Assembly (NCBI GenBank): GCA_045112195.1
Contig: JBGUHQ010000008.1
Span: 14,285-78,284 of the forward strand
Source of the DNA: Christensenellales bacterium
Lineage (GTDB): Bacteria; Bacillota; Clostridia; Christensenellales; Aristaeellaceae
Length of the DNA: 64,000 nt
Reading direction: 5' to 3'
The notes beneath the pieces are model-generated. The model worked only from the letters and a program-made list of their open reading frames with translations. It had not been told where the DNA came from and ran no database searches. Position numbers and translations under genes: made by a program. Positions 8,071-54,045 of the stretch are shown piece by piece; position 1 is the stretch's first letter; the number at the start of each line of letters is the position of its first letter.

Positions 8071-9081
8071 ATGTCGGTGAAAAAGCCAACGATGCGGGAT
8101 ATTGCCTGCGAGGTGGGGACCAGCGCAGTGACGGTTTCCAAGGCCATGGCCGGAAAGACGGGCATGAGCGATGAGCTGCGGATGAAGATCCTGAAAAAGG
8201 CTTCGGAGATGGGATACGAGTATCCCCACAACACCCGCCTGCTGCCCCGGGAGCATCTGGAGATCGGAATCCTGATTCCGGACAAGTATTTTGAGGCGGA
8301 TTCGTTCTACGCGGAGATCTACAAGCGGCTGGTCAAAAAACTGGCGGATCTTGGGCATTTCGGCCTGCTGGAGCTGCTGGACCCGGAGAATGAGCGGGAA
8401 CTGGCGCTTCCGAACCTGCTGACCACCAAGCATGTGGACGGACTGGTGATGCTGGGCGAGCCGGCGAAGGCTTATTACCGGAAGGTGGCCCAGGCGGGAA
8501 CGCCGATCGTGTTCCTGGATTTTTATGACGAGCAGGCCAACGCGGATGCCGTGGCGGGAGATAACAGCTACGGTACCTACCGGCTGACCAGCCACCTGAT
8601 CCGGCGCGGCCACCGGAAGATCGGATTTGTCGGAAACATCAAGGTAACCAGCAGTATCATGGACCGTTACCTTGGTTATTACCGGGCTATGCTTGTAAAC
8701 GACCTGCAGGTGCGGGAAGAATGGATCCTGCCGGACCGGAAGATGACCGGCGGGATCGTGAGACCGGAATTGCCCGAAGAACTGCCGACGGCCTTTGTCT
8801 GCAACTGCGACATGACGGCCCGGATGATGATCGACCTGCTGAGGGACAAGGGATACCGGGTGCCGGAGGACATCTCCGTAACCGGGTTTGACGATTACCC
8901 GGCAGGGAGTGAAACGGACATTCCCCTGAGCACCTTCCGGATTGACACGGACGGAATGATCGAACTGGCTGTCAAAACGCTTCTGGATCGCTGCGCCGGA
9001 AGCGGCAAGCCCTTCGGCCGGTTTGTAGTCGGCGGACAGCCGGTCTATCGGCATTCTGAAACCGAGATTCAGGATGCATGA
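8071..9081 (+). CDS. LacI family transcriptional regulator
   Basis: N-terminal HTH PTMRDIACEVGTSAVTVSKAM followed by a periplasmic-binding-protein-like sugar-binding fold. Start ATG 8071. Confidence 0.9.
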   Translation: MSVKKPTMRDIACEVGTSAVTVSKAMAGKTGMSDELRMKILKKASEMGYEYPHNTRLLPREHLEIGILIPDKYFEADSFYAEIYKRLVKKLADLGHFGLLELLDPENERELALPNLLTTKHVDGLVMLGEPAKAYYRKVAQAGTPIVFLDFYDEQANADAVAGDNSYGTYRLTSHLIRRGHRKIGFVGNIKVTSSIMDRYLGYYRAMLVNDLQVREEWILPDRKMTGGIVRPELPEELPTAFVCNCDMTARMMIDLLRDKGYRVPEDISVTGFDDYPAGSETDIPLSTFRIDTDGMIELAVKTLLDRCAGSGKPFGRFVVGGQPVYRHSETEIQDA

Positions 9082-9083
9082 CA

Positions 9084-9116
9084 ATTCATAATTCATAATT
9101 CACAATTCATAATTAG
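9084..9116 (+). repeat. heptamer tandem array AATTCAT AATTCAT AATTCAC AATTCAT AATTA
   Basis: 4.7 copies of a 7-nt unit starting 3 nt after the lacI-like stop codon (9079-9081). About 80% AT. Confidence 0.8.
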
Positions 9117-42158: not shown

Positions 42159-44051
42159 ATGGCAGATCTGGTAGTGATCGGCGCGGGACACGCGGGCTGT
42201 GAGGCCGCGCTTGCCGCCGCCCGGATGGGGATCGATACGCTCCTGCTGACGCTGAATATGGACGGAATTGCCCTGATGGCCTGCAATCCGGTCATCGGCG
42301 GCTCAGCAAAGGGGCATCTTGTGCGGGAACTGGATGCGCTGGGCGGTGAGATGGGCCTGGCGATCGACGATACTTTCCTGCAGAGCCGCATGCTGAATAT
42401 GGGCAAGGGCCCGGCGGTTCATTCCCTGCGCGCTCAGGCGGACAAACAGGGATACCAGAACCGGATGCGGAAAGCCCTGATGACAACGGAACGGCTGACG
42501 GTACGGCAGGGCGAAGCCGCATCCATTGAGACAGAAAACGGCCGGGTGACGGCGGTGACGACGGTGACCGGCGCGCGGATTCCCTGCCGCGCGGTTGTGG
42601 TTTCTACCGGCGTGTACCTGAAGGGCAGCATCATCATCGGCGAGCACCGGCATGACGGCGGTCCCCAGGGGCTGATGAACGCGGGCGAGCTGTCCGCAAG
42701 CCTGGCGGGGCTGGGATTCGAGCTGCGGCGGTACAAGACCGGCACACCGGCAAGAGTCGATGTGCGGAGTGTGGACTTTGACGAGATGGAGGAACAGAAA
42801 GGCGATGAGCCGGTGGTTCCCTTCTCCTTCCTGACGGACCGGAAACTGGAGAACACCTACAGCTGCTACCTGACCTGGACCACGCCGGAAACGCACAGGA
42901 TCATTCTGGACAACCTGCACCGGGCACCGCTGTACAGCGGCAAGATCCACGGCATCGGCCCGCGGTACTGTCCGAGCATTGAAGACAAGGTGGTGCGTTT
43001 CGCGGACAAGGACCGGCACCAGATCTTCCTGGAGCCGGAGGGTAAGGAAAGCCGGGAATGGTATGTGCAGGGAATGAGCACTTCCATGCCGGAGGACGTG
43101 CAGTGGGCTATGTACCGGACGATTCCCGGGCTGCGGCGCTGCGAATTCACCCGGCTCGGCTACGCCATCGAATACGACTGCATCGACAGCCGGGAACTGA
43201 AGCCGACGCTGGAGAGTTTGCGGATCGGCGGCCTGTTCTTTGCGGGGCAGATCAACGGAACCAGCGGATATGAAGAAGCGGCCTGCCAGGGCCTGCTTGC
43301 CGGTATGAACGCCGCGCTGGAACTGCAGGGCAGGGAACAGATTATCCTGACGCGGGATATGGCCTATATCGGCGTGATGACGGACGACCTGACCACCAAG
43401 GGAACAGACGAACCTTACCGCATGATGACCTCCCGGGCGGAACACCGGCTGTATCTGCGGCAGGACAACGCTGACCTGCGGCTGACGGAGATCGGCCACC
43501 GGGCCGGGCTTGCCTCAGACGAGCGGCTGGAACGGACGCGGAGGAAACAGGAGGAAACCGCGGAACTGATCCGCCGGCTGGAGACGACCCGTTTCGCGCC
43601 GGGGGAGGCGCTGAACGGCCTGCTGAAAGCAAAGGGCCAGCCGGAAGTGACCGGTTCTCAGAAGGCGGAAGACCTCCTGAAGCGGCCGGAGATTACCCTG
43701 AAAGATCTGACCGGGCTGAAGCCGGAATGGGGAACTGTTTCCCCTGCGGCGGCGGAGCAGGCGGAGATTTCCGTGAAGTATGCCGGCTACCTGGAGAAGG
43801 AAGCTCAGATGATCCGGCAGGCTAGGCAGATGGAAGAGATCCGGCTGCCGCAGGACATCGATTATGCAAAGATCGAGCATCTGCGGCTGGAAGCGCGGCA
43901 GAAGCTGAACAAGCAGAAGCCGGTTTCACTGGGCGCGGCGGGGCGGATCCCGGGCGTCAATCCGGCGGACGTGGCGGTGCTTTCCGTCTGGCTGCACAAG
44001 CAGAACAGCCGGCAGGGATCTTCTGAAACTGGAGGGAAAGATGAACGCTAA
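42159..44051 (+). CDS. mnmG: tRNA uridine-5-carboxymethylaminomethyl(34) synthesis enzyme MnmG
   Basis: FAD motif [31 protein letters not shown]. About 630 aa. Confidence 0.95.
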
Positions 44052-44637
44052 GACACTGAAAGTGCTGTGGCTTATCGGACTGGTCGCGATCCTTATTGCC
44101 GGGGCGGTTATCCTGTTCGCCCCCGGAGGGAAACCGACGGATCAGGTAAAACCGGCGGCGCAGCGGCAGCAGTATGAGCCGAAGGTCACAAAACCCCTGG
44201 CGGAGGCCAGCACCAATGATCCGCTGCTGAAGAAATTCGAGGGGATCAGCTGGGGCATGACCAAGGACGAACTGACGGAAAAGTTCGGAAAGGGACTGAT
44301 TCCGGATTCGTCCGGAGGCATGATCTACCGGGACGCGAACTCGATCTACGGCACCGTAACCTATACGCTGGCGCTGCGGGACGGGAAGCTGAACATGATC
44401 CTTGCTTCGGTGAGCCCGGACGATAAACTGGATATGCTCCGCGTATCGCTGAACGGCAGATACGGGACCGCGATGCCGGCCAACTATACCTACGCGATGC
44501 TGGGAAAGATGGAGGAAGACCAGAGAAGCAAAACCCTGGCCTGGCAGACCGCGGATACGGTGATCTGCATGAATGAGTCGAGCATCAATTATGTGCCCGC
44601 TTCCCCGGGGTCGCTGGTGCCGGAAGAAAATAAATAA
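44041..44637 (+). CDS. hypothetical membrane-anchored protein
   Basis: GGAGGG RBS. The ATG overlaps the end of mnmG. A single N-terminal TM helix. No recognisable motif. Confidence 0.55.
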
Positions 44638-44638
44638 C

Positions 44639-44667
44639 AAAACGGCTGCCTGACGGCAGCCGTTTTT
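44639..44667. terminator. bidirectional intrinsic terminator between convergent genes
   Basis: AAAACGGCTGCC-tga-CGGCAGCCGTTTT. Confidence 0.65.
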
Positions 44668-44678
44668 GCTACGCATTT

Positions 44679-47600
44679 TTAAGATTCTTCTTCGACTTTG
44701 TCGTAGTTCCGGCGGGGGAGTTCGATGCCGAATTCCCGGGCGGTGGCTTCGAGAATATCAAGAGCCTGCTCGATCTGTTCGGGTTTGTGCTCGCTGATTA
44801 CGCAGAAGCGGAGACGGGCTTTTCCCTTCGGAACAGCGGGATACATGGCGGGCGGTACGCTGACGCCGCGCTTCTTCAGCTCGTTGGAGAGCAGCCAGGC
44901 GTCCTCATCCTTGCCGACCAGGACCGGCAGCACGGCCGTTTCGCCGGCAAGACAGATATCCAGGTGGCGGCGCCGCGCGCTGTCCGCGAAGGCCTTGATG
45001 GCGATCCGCAGATGCTCCATGATCTCGGGATGGGAGCGGAGGGTGCGGATGGCGGCCAGGGAACCGGCTGCCAGCGCGGGGGAGATGCCGACGGAGAAGA
45101 CGAAGCCGGGCATGTTGTAGCGCAGGTAGTCGATGAGGCACTTTTTGCCGGCCAGGTAGCCGCCGCAGGTGCCCAGGCCCTTGGACAGGGTGCCGTATTT
45201 GATGTCGATATCGTCGCCCTTGAGGTTGAAGTACTCATCCACGCCGCCGCCGGTTTTCCCGATGACGCAGGCGCTGTGCGCTTCGTCAACCATCAGGAAA
45301 CAGCCGTACTCCTTCTTGATCCGGACAAATTCCGGCACGGGGGCGATATCGCCGTCCATACTGTAGGCGCCCTCAATGACGATGAGGACTTTTTCATAAT
45401 AGGCGCGCTGGCTCTTCAGGATCGTTTCCAGCGCGGCGGTATCGCTGTGGGGGAAGGGCCGGGAGGTCGCGTCGGACAGCTTGCAGCCCTGCTCGATGGA
45501 GTTGTGAGCCAGGGCGTCGTAAAGGATCAGGTCGTTCTTGCCGCAGAAGTTGCCGACGAAGGTCACGTTGGTGGAATGACCGCCGACGCAGACCACGGCG
45601 TCCTCGGTGTGCTTCCAGTCCGCGATCTCTTTTTCCAGATCCTTGTGGACCTGCTTTTCACCGGCCAGCAGGCGGCTGCCGCTGGCGCTGGTGCCGTACT
45701 TGTCGATGGCGGCCTTGGCGGCGTCCTTGACTTCCTTGCGGCCGGACATGCCGATATAGTTATAGGAACCGAACTCCAGGACTTCTTTTCCGTCGATGAT
45801 GCCGGTATCCAGCAGGGGAGACTCATGGGTGACGAAATAGGGGTTGTCGCCCTTGCCGACCAGGGCTTCCTGGCGCTCAAGGAAATGCTTGTATTCGGGT
45901 GTGTCCTCGAAACGGAAGATCGGGCGGACGGGAACGCGCTCCTTCGGCTTCGCGCCTTCGGCGGCGCCGCCGTCCAGCAGGTTCTCCACCACCTGGCTCA
46001 TGCCGAGCACGGTGGCGCACTGGCCGTATTCTTCCGCGGGGATGGTGACGCCCCATTCTTCTTCCGCCTTCAGGGCGATGGAGAGCACCTGCAGGCTGTC
46101 GCCCTGGAGGTCCTCGATGAAGTTGGCGTTGTCGGTGATTTCGCTCTCGCTGATCTCAAGGGCCTCGGCATACATGGAGCGGACCTTTTTGAGGATTTCG
46201 TCATGACGGGCGCTCTTGGTTTCCAGCGCGGCCGCCGCGGCCACTTCGGCGCCGGCGTTCTGGGCGTGCAGGTCCAGCTCGCGGTAGGACAGCTCACCCT
46301 CTTCATACATACGCTTGAGCTCGATCCGCTTGACCTTGATACCGCTGACAAGCGGCAGGCGCATGGGCGTGACGAGAGCGCGGTTCAGCTGGGAATACAG
46401 GGGGAGCTTGCTGTTGGCGGCAGCCACGGAGGCGGCCAGCTTGTCAAGATACTGGCTGTCGGTATAGTTTTCACCGACGTTCATGACCAGGACGATATCC
46501 TCGTTCCGGTCGCGGCGGTTGCGGCGGAAGCCGACTACGCAGCTCTGGTCCACGCCGCGAAGAGAGGCGAAGGCGTCTTCCATGTCGTCGGGATAGACGT
46601 TCTCGCCGGATTCATTGATGATGACGTCCTTCAGACGGCCTCGGATATACAGGCGCCCGGAGGCGTCCAGCTGGGCGATGTCCCCGGTCTGGAGCCAGCC
46701 GCCGGCCAGCGTGTCAGGCGGGAGCAGTTCCCCGTGCACGACGCGGGCGGTATGGATTCCGGGACCACGGATCTGCAGTTCGCCGACCTTCTCGCCCTCC
46801 TTTTCCGGAACGATCCGGTATTCGGCAGAGGACAGGGGTTTACCGACGGAACCGTTCAGCCGGTGCTTCAGGTCCATGCCGAGTTCAAAGCCGTTGATAC
46901 CGGTTTCGGTCATGCCGTAGCCGGTGACGGTATAGTAACCCAGGGCATTCAGGGTGCGCAGGGTTTCGTTCGGCGTATGGCTGCCGCCGAGGATAAGCAC
47001 GTCCACCTCGGTGCCCAGGAGTTTTTCATTGAGAGCGGCGAACGCCTTTTCCTGCGCCCAGGCGAGGCCGGCTTCGGGAGAGACGGTCTGGCGCATGATG
47101 GAAATGGCCTTCATGGACTGATAGGCGCTGCGCTTTGCCTTGCTCTCTTTCTTCAGGCCCTTTTCCACGGAGCGGACCAGGCTGTTGCCCACCAGGGGCA
47201 CCATGATCAGCAGGTTCGGCGGGAAATGGCGGCAGGTATTGATGATGGAATTGGGGGTGCGATCCTGCAGGTAGATGCTGGCCGTGCCCATGAAGTGCGC
47301 CAGGATGACGTTGCCCATGAAGCCAAGCACATGGTGGAAGGGCAGGAACGCCAGGGTCTTCCGGCCGCGGTTATCCGGATGGATAATGCGGGGGTTGGTC
47401 TTGTAGAGCGTCAGGGCGTTCAGGGCCTGCTCGCAGACCGCTTCGCCGTTGTAGGCGAAAATGCGGCTGGTGCCGGTGGTGCCGCTGGTGCACATGGCGG
47501 TATATTCACCCCAGACAGGGGTGAAGCCGATGGTGCGCGGGGCTTCCCGGACGGCCTTGAAATCGATCTGGCGGACGTTGCCGGACAGCGCCCGGGGTTT

Positions 47601-47969
47601 CCGGGAGATAATCTGGCGGCAGTTTGCCTCGTCCAGCAGGCCCTGGATCACGCTGTCAGGCGCGGACGCGTCCAGCAGCAGGGCATTGTGGCCGGAGCGG
47701 AGTACGCCCCAGTACAGGGACGGCCAGTCGTGGCAGGTGTCCACAGCGACGCCGACCCAGCCCTCGTCAGGCGCGAGCTCAGCGATGCAGGCGGCATAGT
47801 CGTCCGCCCGGTGGGTCATCTCCGCGTAGGTGCAGGAGAGTTCTTGCTCGCCCTTCAGCCACAGGGCCGCGGGGGCGTCCCCGTATTCCCGGAGGATTTC
47901 GAACAGGGTTGCCAGGGTTTTGTCAGCTTCCAGTCTTGCGCATACAGATTGCGCGTCGTAATTGCTCAT
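44679..47969 (-). CDS. tri-domain fusion: fatty-acyl-AMP/long-chain acyl ligase - acyl carrier protein - alpha-oxoamine synthase (PLP, class II aminotransferase)
   Basis: ANL motifs TSGTTGTSR (aa 161-169), YGMTE (351-355), TGD (428-430) and GRLKDVI (444-450). Carrier-protein motif LQGDSL (Ser625). AOS motifs SYNYIG, DEAHS and GTLSKGLG (Lys930). 1096 aa. RBS GGAAGGAGG. Confidence 0.85.
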   Translation of the reverse strand: MSNYDAQSVCARLEADKTLATLFEILREYGDAPAALWLKGEQELSCTYAEMTHRADDYAACIAELAPDEGWVGVAVDTCHDWPSLYWGVLRSGHNALLLDASAPDSVIQGLLDEANCRQIISRKPRALSGNVRQIDFKAVREAPRTIGFTPVWGEYTAMCTSGTTGTSRIFAYNGEAVCEQALNALTLYKTNPRIIHPDNRGRKTLAFLPFHHVLGFMGNVILAHFMGTASIYLQDRTPNSIINTCRHFPPNLLIMVPLVGNSLVRSVEKGLKKESKAKRSAYQSMKAISIMRQTVSPEAGLAWAQEKAFAALNEKLLGTEVDVLILGGSHTPNETLRTLNALGYYTVTGYGMTETGINGFELGMDLKHRLNGSVGKPLSSAEYRIVPEKEGEKVGELQIRGPGIHTARVVHGELLPPDTLAGGWLQTGDIAQLDASGRLYIRGRLKDVIINESGENVYPDDMEDAFASLRGVDQSCVVGFRRNRRDRNEDIVLVMNVGENYTDSQYLDKLAASVAAANSKLPLYSQLNRALVTPMRLPLVSGIKVKRIELKRMYEEGELSYRELDLHAQNAGAEVAAAAALETKSARHDEILKKVRSMYAEALEISESEITDNANFIEDLQGDSLQVLSIALKAEEEWGVTIPAEEYGQCATVLGMSQVVENLLDGGAAEGAKPKERVPVRPIFRFEDTPEYKHFLERQEALVGKGDNPYFVTHESPLLDTGIIDGKEVLEFGSYNYIGMSGRKEVKDAAKAAIDKYGTSASGSRLLAGEKQVHKDLEKEIADWKHTEDAVVCVGGHSTNVTFVGNFCGKNDLILYDALAHNSIEQGCKLSDATSRPFPHSDTAALETILKSQRAYYEKVLIVIEGAYSMDGDIAPVPEFVRIKKEYGCFLMVDEAHSACVIGKTGGGVDEYFNLKGDDIDIKYGTLSKGLGTCGGYLAGKKCLIDYLRYNMPGFVFSVGISPALAAGSLAAIRTLRSHPEIMEHLRIAIKAFADSARRRHLDICLAGETAVLPVLVGKDEDAWLLSNELKKRGVSVPPAMYPAVPKGKARLRFCVISEHKPEQIEQALDILEATAREFGIELPRRNYDKVEEES

Positions 47970-48084
47970 GAATGCCTCCTTCCGTCTGGTTCAGGAGCAT
48001 GTATTGACGCGACAGGGACGGGGAAGGGACGGATAATGGCGTATAAAATGAATAATCCTTCCGATGCCCAAATCACATCAGCAT

Positions 48085-48093
48085 ATTATAACA
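48085..48093 (-). promoter_or_regulatory. extended -10 element for the tri-domain gene
   Basis: Minus strand TGTTATAAT. No good -35. Confidence 0.35.
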
Positions 48094-48120
48094 CAAAATA
48101 TAGCGGAGAATGTTACAAAG

Positions 48121-48153
48121 GATTCACAATTCATAAGTCACAATTCATAATTA
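48121..48153 (+). repeat. heptamer tandem array GATTCAC AATTCAT AAGTCAC AATTCAT AATTA
   Basis: 4.7 copies. The only copy not abutting a CDS stop. Lies between divergent promoters. Confidence 0.75.
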
Positions 48154-48172
48154 AATAAGCGGAGAATTGGAG

Positions 48173-48201
48173 TTGTACGGGGCAGGGGAATATGGTATGA
48201 T
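48173..48201 (+). promoter_or_regulatory. promoter of the amylosucrase operon
   Basis: TTGTAC-17 nt-TATGAT with TG at -15/-14. Confidence 0.45.
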
Positions 48202-48287
48202 TTGTATATAAGACAGAACAAAAGAACAGACGTTAAAATCTGAAGACCCGTCAATAAAAGCATATCAAACAGCAGAGGTGTATGTTT

Positions 48288-51149: not shown

Positions 51150-51974
51150 ATGAACCGGAAACTGATTTTCCTGGATATTGACGGTACCCTGACGCCCGCA
51201 GGAAGCAACGTGCCGCCGGAAAGCGCCATGACGGCTGTGCGGAAAGCGCAGGAAAAGGGCCACGTGGTCTTTCTGTGCACAGGGCGCAATCCCGCCATGC
51301 TGGCGCCGGTGTTCGCCCTGGGGTTTGACGGCGCGGTGGCCGGGGCCGGCGGCTATGTGTTTACGAAGGACGAAGTATTGTTTGACTGCCCGATGAAGAA
51401 AGAGGATTTCGAAACGGGCATGAGGCTGCTCCGGGAAAACGGCGTTTTCCGGACCATCGAAGCAAAGGACGCTACCTGGGGGGACGAGGATCTGGGCGAA
51501 TTCCTGGCGCAGGCAGGCGACGGGAACAGCGAACTGATCCGCTGGCGGAAAGCGCTGGCGGAGCAGCTGAACATCCGCCCGATGAGCGAGTATGACGGCA
51601 GCCCGATCTACAAGATCGTGATCATGTGCAAGGAAATGAAACAGCTGGAACCGGCAAAACGAGCCCTGGAGAAAGACTACAACTTTGTGGTGCAGGACCT
51701 GGCCGCCCGCGGCTGCCTGAACGGCGAACTGATCAACCGTCAGTTCGACAAGGGCAGGGGCGTCCGGATTGTCGCGGATCATTACGGAATCGACATCAAA
51801 GACACCATCGGTTTCGGCGACAGCATGAACGACCTGGAAATGATCGAAACCGTCGGGTATTCCGTCTGCATGGCAAACGGCAGCCCCGCCCTGCAGGCGA
51901 AGAGCAACCTGATCTGCCCGGCCGTGGAGGAGGACGGGCTGTACCAGGCGTTTGAACAGCTCGGACTTTTATAA
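51150..51974 (+). CDS. Cof-type HAD-IIB sugar phosphatase
   Basis: FLDIDGTLT and GDSMNDLEM. 274 aa. Confidence 0.85.
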   Translation: MNRKLIFLDIDGTLTPAGSNVPPESAMTAVRKAQEKGHVVFLCTGRNPAMLAPVFALGFDGAVAGAGGYVFTKDEVLFDCPMKKEDFETGMRLLRENGVFRTIEAKDATWGDEDLGEFLAQAGDGNSELIRWRKALAEQLNIRPMSEYDGSPIYKIVIMCKEMKQLEPAKRALEKDYNFVVQDLAARGCLNGELINRQFDKGRGVRIVADHYGIDIKDTIGFGDSMNDLEMIETVGYSVCMANGSPALQAKSNLICPAVEEDGLYQAFEQLGLL

Positions 51975-51975
51975 C

Positions 51976-52001
51976 AATTCAGAATTCATAATTCATAATT
52001 A
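51976..52001 (+). repeat. heptamer tandem array AATTCAG AATTCAT AATTCAT AATTA
   Basis: Starts 2 nt after the TAA of the HAD gene. Confidence 0.75.
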
Positions 52002-54012: not shown

Positions 54013-54045
54013 AATTCAGAATTCATAAATCAGAATTCAGAATTA
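54013..54045 (+). repeat. heptamer tandem array AATTCAG AATTCAT AAATCAG AATTCAG AATTA
   Basis: Starts 2 nt after the TAA of the PTS gene and ends 29 nt before the ptsH ATG. Confidence 0.75.

Follow-up and report, generated by a model that had tools for sequence, protein, structure and literature searches.

What does a single protein that joins an acid-activating domain, a carrier domain and a ketone-forming domain make in a Gram-positive-lineage anaerobe? The question is raised by one gene in a 64,000-nucleotide stretch of DNA from a Christensenellales bacterium (GenBank assembly GCA_045112195.1, contig JBGUHQ010000008.1, positions 14,285 to 78,284). This whole stretch is called the window below, and positions are those of the window unless another contig is named. 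The gene lies at 44679-47969 on the minus strand. The original prediction, made from the sequence alone, described its product as a fusion of an adenylating enzyme, an acyl carrier protein (ACP), plus a pyridoxal 5'-phosphate (PLP)-dependent α-oxoamine synthase (AOS), with a sphingoid-like base among the candidate products. Our analysis of the protein, its relatives and the rest of the genome (a 2.88-Mb assembly, 93.6% complete) indicates that an assembly-line mechanism is well supported by sequence, and comparative genomics supports a sphingoid-type outcome.

The open reading frame (ORF) has 1096 codons plus a stop codon and encodes a 1,096-aa protein, here called the tridomain protein. In a Pfam scan this protein matches AMP-binding (PF00501, residues 27-405, 5.8e-33), AMP-binding_C_3 (PF23562, 448-537), PP-binding (PF00550, 595-659, 1e-09) and Aminotran_1_2 (PF00155, 729-1072, 2.8e-44). 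The ORF, the Pfam matches and the catalytic motifs confirm one gene with three fused domains. The motifs quoted in the original prediction are all found at their positions: TSGTTGTSR at 161-169, YGMTE at 351-355, TGD at 428-430, GRLKDVI at 444-450, LQGDS625L, DEAHS at 895-899 and GTLSK930G. We aligned 49 homologues of 55-95% identity, and all the catalytic residues needed for a three-domain assembly line are present and invariant.

The adenylate-forming (ANL) domain, or A domain, spans residues 1-570 (46260-47969, minus strand). It contains the A3 motif T161-SGTTG, an A4-like LPFHH (209-213), A5 (351-355), A7 (428-430), A8 (GRLKD, 444-448) and the A10 lysine Lys545. T161-S-G-T-T165, LPFHH, G350-x-G-M-T-E-T356, G429-D430, G444-R-x-K447 and Lys545 are invariant in the 49 homologues. 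Membership in the ANL superfamily is evident from the PF00501 match, the A3, A5, A7 and A8 motifs and the A10 lysine, and is confirmed by the fold: an AlphaFold model of the domain (mean pLDDT 85.6) has a generic acyl/aryl-CoA-ligase fold. In the adenylation domains of non-ribosomal peptide synthetases (NRPS), the A4 motif is F-D-x-S and its Asp binds the α-amino group; LPFHH is of the acyl/aryl-CoA-ligase type. An amino-acid-activating NRPS domain was rejected on the invariant L209-P-F-H-H213, which stands in place of F-D-x-S. The domain is therefore predicted to activate a carboxylic acid without an α-amino group. Its top curated matches are long-chain fatty-acid-CoA ligase families and MenE, all far under their cut-offs. 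Fatty acyl-AMP ligases (FAAL) and acyl-ACP synthetases transfer the acyl group to the phosphopantetheine of a carrier instead of coenzyme A (CoA), and a FAAL-specific insertion is another hallmark. The model shows a four-helix insertion at residues ~258-316, which may or may not correspond to the FAAL insertion, and the fusion to a carrier implies that the A domain would load it in cis. The acid is most probably a long-chain fatty acid, to judge from the weak family matches, the analogy to the AasR system considered at the end and the nature of the reductase partner described below.

The carrier domain (ACP/PCP-like, residues 590-665, 45975-46202, minus strand) is a three-helix bundle in the model. 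Its phosphopantetheine serine is Ser625 (codon 46095-46097), and G623, D624, S625 and L626 are invariant in the homologues. The conserved serine in G-D-S-L, the Pfam match and the presence of phosphopantetheinyl transferases (PPTases) in the genome identify it as a carrier protein. A PPTase search, which the original prediction had proposed, found two: an AcpS-type enzyme on contig C5 and a 202-aa Sfp-type enzyme on contig C18. Either could prime Ser625. The Sfp-type gene belongs to a minus-strand cluster (C18:24000-31600; L076:5917-13613) with genes for a 118-aa ACP and for three Fab-like enzymes (FabD-like acyltransferase, FabG-like reductase and FabA-like dehydratase), a pair of ABC transporter genes and one gene for a 465-aa protein without a Pfam match. 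Contig C6 (L077:5125-8115, minus strand) encodes another carrier domain, in a stand-alone NRPS-like protein of 996 aa that also has an adenylation and a condensation domain.

The AOS domain (residues 690-1096, 44682-45902, minus strand) was identified by PF00155, its best structural matches, residue mapping onto serine palmitoyltransferase (SPT) and its position in a tree. Its key residues are His822 (stacking), Ser870, Asp895 (pyridine N), His898 (O3'), Thr927, Ser929, Lys930 (Schiff base, codon 45180-45182) and Arg1052/1054 (carboxylate), which establish it as an α-oxoamine synthase. His822, Asp895, His898, Ser929-Lys930 and Arg1052/1054 are invariant in the 49 homologues. The best matches in the PDB, by sequence and by fold, are Sphingobacterium multivorum SPT (3a2b/8guh) and the Thermus AOS (ThAOS). 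A Foldseek comparison with 8guh gave a TM-score of 0.84, and the search with the full-length model returned AOS structures only. In a comparison with annotated plasmids, the domain is most similar to the AOS at the C-terminus of a Planktothrix type I polyketide synthase (PKS; 47.5% identity) and to a Bacillus tropicus ACP-AOS protein (43.9%), compared with only 27-35% for Kbl, 5-aminolevulinate synthase (ALAS) and BioF.

Curated family models place the domain below the cut-off of every SPT, BioF and Kbl equivalog. The highest single NCBIfam score is for bioF (TIGR00858, 341.6 bits versus a cut-off of 426.45). The SPT equivalogs gave 292 bits (NF047600, Bacteroidota type, cut-off 640), 271 bits (NF047599, cut-off 500) and 226 bits (NF047603, cut-off 670), Kbl (NF005394) gave 289 bits (cut-off 460) and CqsA/LqsA (NF005526) gave 154.8 bits (cut-off 428). 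The last score bears on a reading in which the protein is a CAI-1/LAI-1-type autoinducer synthase making an α-hydroxyketone or amino-ketone quorum signal. Such synthases belong to the same AOS superfamily, and a reductase could turn the amino ketone towards a hydroxyketone-type product. However, the CqsA-type score is far under its cut-off, CqsA is among the weakest PDB matches (~1e-22 versus 1e-60 for SPT) and no sensor-kinase gene is adjacent. A CAI-1-type product, which was among the candidates originally listed, has thus lost support and is very unlikely.

We built a maximum-likelihood tree of 50 AOS sequences, with E. coli BioF and Kbl, a second BioF, a second Kbl, ALAS, Sphingomonas SPT (which adjoins an ACP gene), S. 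multivorum SPT and ThAOS as references. The AOS domains of the tridomain proteins form a single clade (100/100), which is sister to the Planktothrix PKS AOS and the Bacillus ACP-AOS (100/99). At 88/71, this carrier-fused group and the SPT-containing clade come together, and BioF, Kbl and ThAOS fall elsewhere in the tree. Common ancestry with the carrier-fused, PKS-type AOS domains is also reflected in His798 and Val960, which are specific to that clade.

The tree and the genome together argue against a role in biotin synthesis, in which the A domain would activate pimelate and the AOS domain would be a BioF producing 7-keto-8-aminopelargonate (KAPA). The top NCBIfam score of bioF and the existence of natural BioW-BioF fusions (PMC9544090) favour such a role. 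However, the bioF score is under its cut-off, and the AOS domain lies outside the BioF/Kbl group, so that the phylogeny proposed in the original prediction shows no nesting inside BioF. In the 93.6% complete genome, bioB was not found (best score 82 bits versus a cut-off of 225) and neither was bioA (215 versus 405), while the biotin transporter BioY is encoded. The conserved partner of the tridomain gene, described below, is a putative ketoreductase, for which biotin synthesis offers no function. On this evidence we rejected a biotin role; the KAPA-like intermediate of the original prediction is the least probable product of all, and the sphingoid idea survives this check. No second AOS gene was found in the genome.

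We mapped the AOS active site onto S. multivorum SPT (PMC10196870) to ask which amino acid is used, an inspection that the original prediction had called for. The PLP-binding and catalytic residues of that enzyme are all identical in the tridomain AOS. On the substrate side are Tyr736, Ser765, His798 and Val960, and the Y-N-Y motif at 736-738 matches Sphingomonas SPT. Ser765 occupies the column of SPT Ser81, which is also Ser in BioF; the glycine-specific enzymes have Val (Kbl) or Thr (ALAS) at this position. Assignment as Kbl, the glycine C-acetyltransferase, was rejected on its score (289 versus 460), on Ser765, which is not β-branched, and on the partner reductase, which is not Tdh. Cysteate fatty acyltransferases (CFAT) carry Ala in the Ser81 column, together with a basic residue that the neighbouring protomer contributes (Lys280 in the Capnocytophaga enzyme; PMC13692747). 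Assignment as CFAT/SulA was likewise rejected, with Val960 and Ser765 occupying the diagnostic columns; two CFAT-like plasmid genes in our alignment have Arg or Lys in the Val960 column. Glycine-specific and cysteate-type pockets can therefore be excluded. In SPT, recognition of the serine hydroxyl goes largely by way of the PLP phosphate and water molecules (PMC10196870), and for this reason the active-site residues cannot tell serine from alanine. The pocket and the SPT comparison suggest that the amino acid is a small L-form that has a side chain, with serine as the most probable choice and alanine as the next; our confidence in serine specifically falls somewhat short of even.

The alignment also drew attention to AOS genes on a Legionella lytica plasmid (L108) and a Spirosoma plasmid (L107), which encode Lys or Arg at the position of CFAT Lys280. 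The Legionella gene adjoins a phosphosulfolactate synthase gene. These two genes are candidate cysteate acyltransferases outside the usual taxa.

The fate of the predicted ketone is suggested by a short-chain dehydrogenase/reductase (SDR). Among relatives of the tridomain protein with 50-58% identity, a gene of 270-285 aa of the adh_short family is located immediately 5' on the same strand, overlapping or translationally coupled to the tridomain gene and often extending over its start codon (loci L043, L047, L051-L053, L061-L063 and L065, and genomes G105 and G008). In several of these relatives an AraC-type regulator gene is located 5' of the SDR-tridomain pair. The genome of the window encodes an orthologue of this SDR on another contig (C4:4221-5045), unlinked to the tridomain gene. 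It is 47-61% identical to the linked SDRs, while the next-best SDRs are ~30% identical. In an SDR tree it falls in one clade with all six linked SDRs (94/96), apart from the other SDRs of the same genome (99/99). Its best NCBIfam match is the 3-ketodihydrosphingosine reductase KdsR (NF049977), full-length at 232 bits, exceeding all generic SDR families. The original statement that no reductase is adjacent is true at the locus; an orthologous reductase is encoded elsewhere in the genome.

The same SDR family accompanies a second kind of condensing enzyme. We searched an even set of 151 genomes of the same order with the C4 SDR; in 23 or more of them, its best match and a stand-alone AOS gene are direct neighbours. 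In 20 such loci from 20 genomes (L078-L097), the AOS-SDR pair is the sole conserved linkage, and the neighbourhoods are otherwise unrelated. On the Bacteroidota SPT model, the AOS proteins of these loci reach 535-565 bits, ~150 bits more than on Kbl or BioF, and their clade is sister to S. multivorum SPT in the AOS tree (92/88). The SDRs beside them have KdsR as their best match (214-275 bits). These pairs suggest that many Clostridia of the order carry out canonical-type sphingoid base synthesis. With SDR presence called at a loose match threshold, an SDR was found in 52 of the 61 genomes with any AOS and in 23 of the 90 without (odds ratio 16.8, Fisher p = 2e-13, with no phylogenetic correction). 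Linkage and co-occurrence predict that, in this order, two alternative condensing enzymes have the KdsR-like SDR as their partner in common. This sharing of one SDR is the strongest argument that the tridomain enzyme would make a 3-keto long-chain base for reduction to an amino alcohol, and it raises the standing of the sphingoid-type product among the candidates first listed.

A pathway can be proposed from these observations. The N-terminal ANL domain would take a free carboxylic acid, with a long-chain fatty acid as the most probable candidate, adenylate it and hand the acyl group on to the phosphopantetheine that one of the two PPTases attaches to Ser625. The PLP domain, through Lys930, would bind a small L-amino acid, most probably serine and otherwise alanine, and condense it decarboxylatively with the tethered acyl thioester, releasing a 2-amino-3-keto long-chain base. 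The C4:4221-5045 SDR would then reduce the ketone to a sphinganine-like amino alcohol. The part from acid through acyl-S-ACP to α-amino ketone is very probably correct; the pathway as a whole is probable, by a smaller measure. The enzyme was originally called self-contained. The fusion of three activities agrees with this description, but a PPTase is needed, and very probably the unlinked reductase as well.

Several points weigh against a sphingoid base as the product. No curated SPT model is reached by the AOS domain (292 bits versus 640), which neighbours the SPT clade rather than lying inside it (88/71). The KdsR match of the C4 SDR is also under its cut-off (232 versus 400), its gene is unlinked and flanked by unrelated genes, and matches at the loose threshold occur in 23 of the 90 genomes without any AOS. 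The fold neighbours of the A domain are generic (MatB, MenE, FadD13, ACSM2A and aryl-acid ligases, 15-20% identity), so that the acid cannot be assigned from them. With family matches under their cut-offs as well, the long-chain activation of the original prediction is something that we infer. No ceramide-synthase-type gene turned up, though no search was aimed at one. Near-identical contigs in a bovine gut metatranscriptome cover the tridomain gene, with a depth minimum at its terminator (bin 44519-44735), but this is a weak sign of transcription because metatranscriptome libraries can contain DNA, which may be present here.

The nearest AOS relatives are found in PKS-type secondary-metabolite clusters, and the product could be a specialised metabolite instead of a membrane lipid. 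The same chemistry would then yield a diffusible compound that serves as a signal, an antibiotic or the precursor of a pyrazine or pyrrole, perhaps from an acid other than a common long-chain fatty acid. The closest AOS relatives, in the Planktothrix type I PKS (47.5%) and the Bacillus tropicus plasmid ACP-AOS cluster, fit this proposal. So does the lower conservation of the A domain among homologues (32-43% identity, versus 59-75% for the AOS domain), which would be in keeping with shifting acid specificities. The AraC-type regulator 5' of the SDR-tridomain pair in several relatives and the patchy occurrence of the gene, in ~13 of the 151 genomes of the order and almost none class-wide, point the same way. 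However, no tailoring, export or resistance genes were recognised among the recurring neighbours in the close relatives fetched. The KdsR-like SDR is the only recurring neighbour with a related function, and its family is common to the SPT-like genes of the order. We therefore regard a specialised metabolite as rather unlikely, and favour the sphingoid-type base.

The three-domain architecture is found in more than 1000 protein clusters. Looking these up for cultured carriers yielded no isolate names. The closest public loci are all from metagenome-assembled genomes of uncultured rumen or gut Clostridia, some of them labelled Christensenellales, Candidatus Limiplasma, Bianqueaceae or Oscillospiraceae. 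The ~13 genomes of the order with full-length tridomain copies belong to several families. In a class-wide sample in which two candidates per genome were scored, and in which sensitivity may be lower, 3 of 401 genomes carry the gene, so that almost no carriers were added outside the order. In that sample, therefore, the tridomain family is concentrated in this order.

Partial versions of the architecture were also seen. Genome G051 encodes a stand-alone AOS of the tridomain clade (L123:1382-2605, 63% identity), and no A-ACP gene was detected in it. Genome G031 encodes an A-ACP protein without AOS (L124:6176-8272), and in G086 the tridomain copy is truncated or split in the A domain (L122:6834-8915). 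The Bacillus tropicus plasmid (L101, NZ_CP065740.1 9397-18228) encodes a 494-aa ACP-AOS protein, 44% identical to the window's AOS domain, in what appears to be an amino-lipid-type cluster that is uncharacterised. Its other genes encode a ketosynthase, a PPTase, an ABC transporter and two transferases (a glycosyltransferase and a SAM methyltransferase). In a clade of 44-47% identity (L112-L121, L123), a gene for DegV, a fatty-acid-binding protein, sits close by on the downstream side in 7 loci, and in 8 a PHP-domain gene does so on the upstream side. The DegV, PHP-domain and epimerase-family neighbours may be functionally linked or may simply be syntenic with genes of housekeeping type (DnaX, RNase J-like), and we do not treat them as strong support. 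The three DegV genes in the genome of the window are unlinked to the tridomain gene.

The tridomain gene (44679-47969, minus strand) is genuine and intact, as judged from the ORF and its translation, Pfam, homologues and codon usage. Its GC content at codon positions 1/2/3 is 0.63/0.41/0.82, the pattern of genuine genes in this genome. A longer plus-strand ORF at 44787-48158 was rejected as a shadow frame in DNA of 60% G+C: its values (0.81/0.42/0.61) mirror the genuine pattern, and no protein content could be recognised in it. Two genes, for MnmG and for a small membrane protein, converge on the tridomain gene, and a sugar operon (α-amylase family, PfkB, HAD, PTS) diverges from it. These neighbours are unrelated, and the gene is therefore monocistronic. 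The convergent small gene (44041-44637, plus strand) encodes 198 aa with an N-terminal membrane helix and no Pfam match, and shares its terminator with the tridomain gene. This terminator, found by a scan, is a bidirectional intrinsic hairpin (44639-44666; 12 pairs, 7 of them G-C, followed by a T-run) that begins 13 nt past the tridomain stop codon.

On the other side, a region of 312 nt (47970-48281, minus strand for the tridomain gene) is shared with the divergent sugar operon. The Shine-Dalgarno sequence GGAGG (47975-47979) is 5 nt 5' of the tridomain ATG. An extended -10 element, TGTTATAAT, was read directly at 48085-48093 on the minus strand, 115 nt upstream of the gene. A promoter at this position is plausible from the motif, and the automatic promoter scan gave it no score. 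Of the gene's own promoter and terminator, both part of the original description, the hairpin and the monocistronic arrangement are thus firm and the promoter is plausible. An Rfam scan of the gene and its leader found no riboswitch or other element; a sub-threshold sRNA match fell on the terminator only.

A repeat search found two copies of TTATGAATTGTGA at 48124-48150 in this upstream region. They belong to intergenic arrays of a 7-nt unit (TTATGAA / TTGTGAA, minus strand) at 9079-9112, 48124-48150, 51972-51998, 54016-54042 and 58274-58293. A 13-mer of these arrays has 13 matches versus 0.6 expected. One array lies immediately 5' of the putative tridomain promoter, and several are directly 3' of plus-strand stop codons.

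In the literature consulted, the bacteria named as sphingolipid producers are Bacteroidota, part of the Proteobacteria and, by prediction, a small number of Actinobacteria (PMC9278070, PMC11087976, PMC12134224). Our full-text literature searches found neither a characterised fused tridomain enzyme nor sphingolipid synthesis in Clostridia. We tentatively propose, as a possibility that we hold at below even chances, that this whole order of Gram-positive-lineage gut and rumen Clostridia (with relatives labelled Christensenellales, Limiplasma and similar) is one of hidden producers of sphingoid bases. A Bacteroidota-like stand-alone SPT and the self-loading fusion would serve as interchangeable start modules for one KdsR-like reductase, and the fusion would channel free fatty acids, dietary or biohydrogenated, into long-chain bases without CoA or the housekeeping ACP. 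If the tridomain enzyme and its reductase do make sphingoid bases, such lipids would have a second, unrecognised source in abundant Clostridia of the rumen and gut. Sphingolipids of Bacteroides are known to arrive in the host and to have effects on it. With acyl-CoA and AasR/AcpR as the first two ways of supplying the acyl group, the pathway would start with a third, next to the PKS route. An enzyme that converts a free acid and an amino acid to an α-amino ketone on one polypeptide would be an attractive biocatalyst, because current AOS biocatalysts require acyl-CoA thioesters (PMC11906848).

Among known systems, the Caulobacter analogy drawn in the original prediction is apt. In Caulobacter and its relatives, a dedicated synthetase (AasR) loads free fatty acid onto a dedicated ACP (AcpR), and Spt prefers acyl-ACP over acyl-CoA (PMC9386255). 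The three activities and their order are the same in these and other 'Rhodobacteria', but there they reside in three proteins, while here they are in one polypeptide whose AOS domain lies outside the proteobacterial SPT clade. The reductase also differs, being a Bacteroides-type, KdsR-like classical SDR that presumably acts on the free base, not one of the CerR type, and the host is a Gram-positive-lineage anaerobe. The Bacteroidota pathway of SPT and KdsR (BT_0972; PMC9278070, PMC10196870) similarly uses an AOS followed by a classical SDR that reduces the 3-keto base. Its SPT is a stand-alone enzyme that uses acyl-CoA, and the tridomain AOS reaches 292 of the 640 bits required by that model. 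Compared with S. multivorum SPT, it has Tyr736 for Asn52, Ala769 for Asn85, His798 for Phe114 and Val960 for Ala274.

Fusion or tethering of the acyl donor has other precedents. In Pseudomonas fluorescens MYb115, sphinganines are made by PfSgaA/B/C, which comprise a PKS that works iteratively, an AOS whose SPT activity is proven and an SDR resembling KDSR (PMC12134224). By description, not by sequence, the two systems share the handing of a carrier-tethered acyl group to an AOS and a subsequent KDSR-like SDR. In PfSgaABC an iterative type I PKS builds the chain and the AOS is separate, whereas here an adenylation domain would take a ready-made acid and the AOS is fused. In the BioWF fusion (PMC9544090), an acid-activating enzyme is likewise naturally joined to an AOS. 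BioW, however, is not an ANL enzyme, has no carrier domain and uses a CoA thioester to make a biotin precursor, and the biotin genes are absent here. The closest architectural match is with the carrier-fused AOS of PKS and NRPS lines. A-CP-AOS, CP-AOS and KS-AT-...-CP-AOS architectures were catalogued in 2013, the first of them in Microscilla and Blastopirellula and with no function assigned to it (PMC3870968). The A-CP-AOS architecture is the same and the AOS domains of the group are sisters (100/99). Those systems are entries without a function or parts of large multi-gene clusters, whereas the tridomain protein stands alone, with a KdsR-like SDR as its sole conserved partner.

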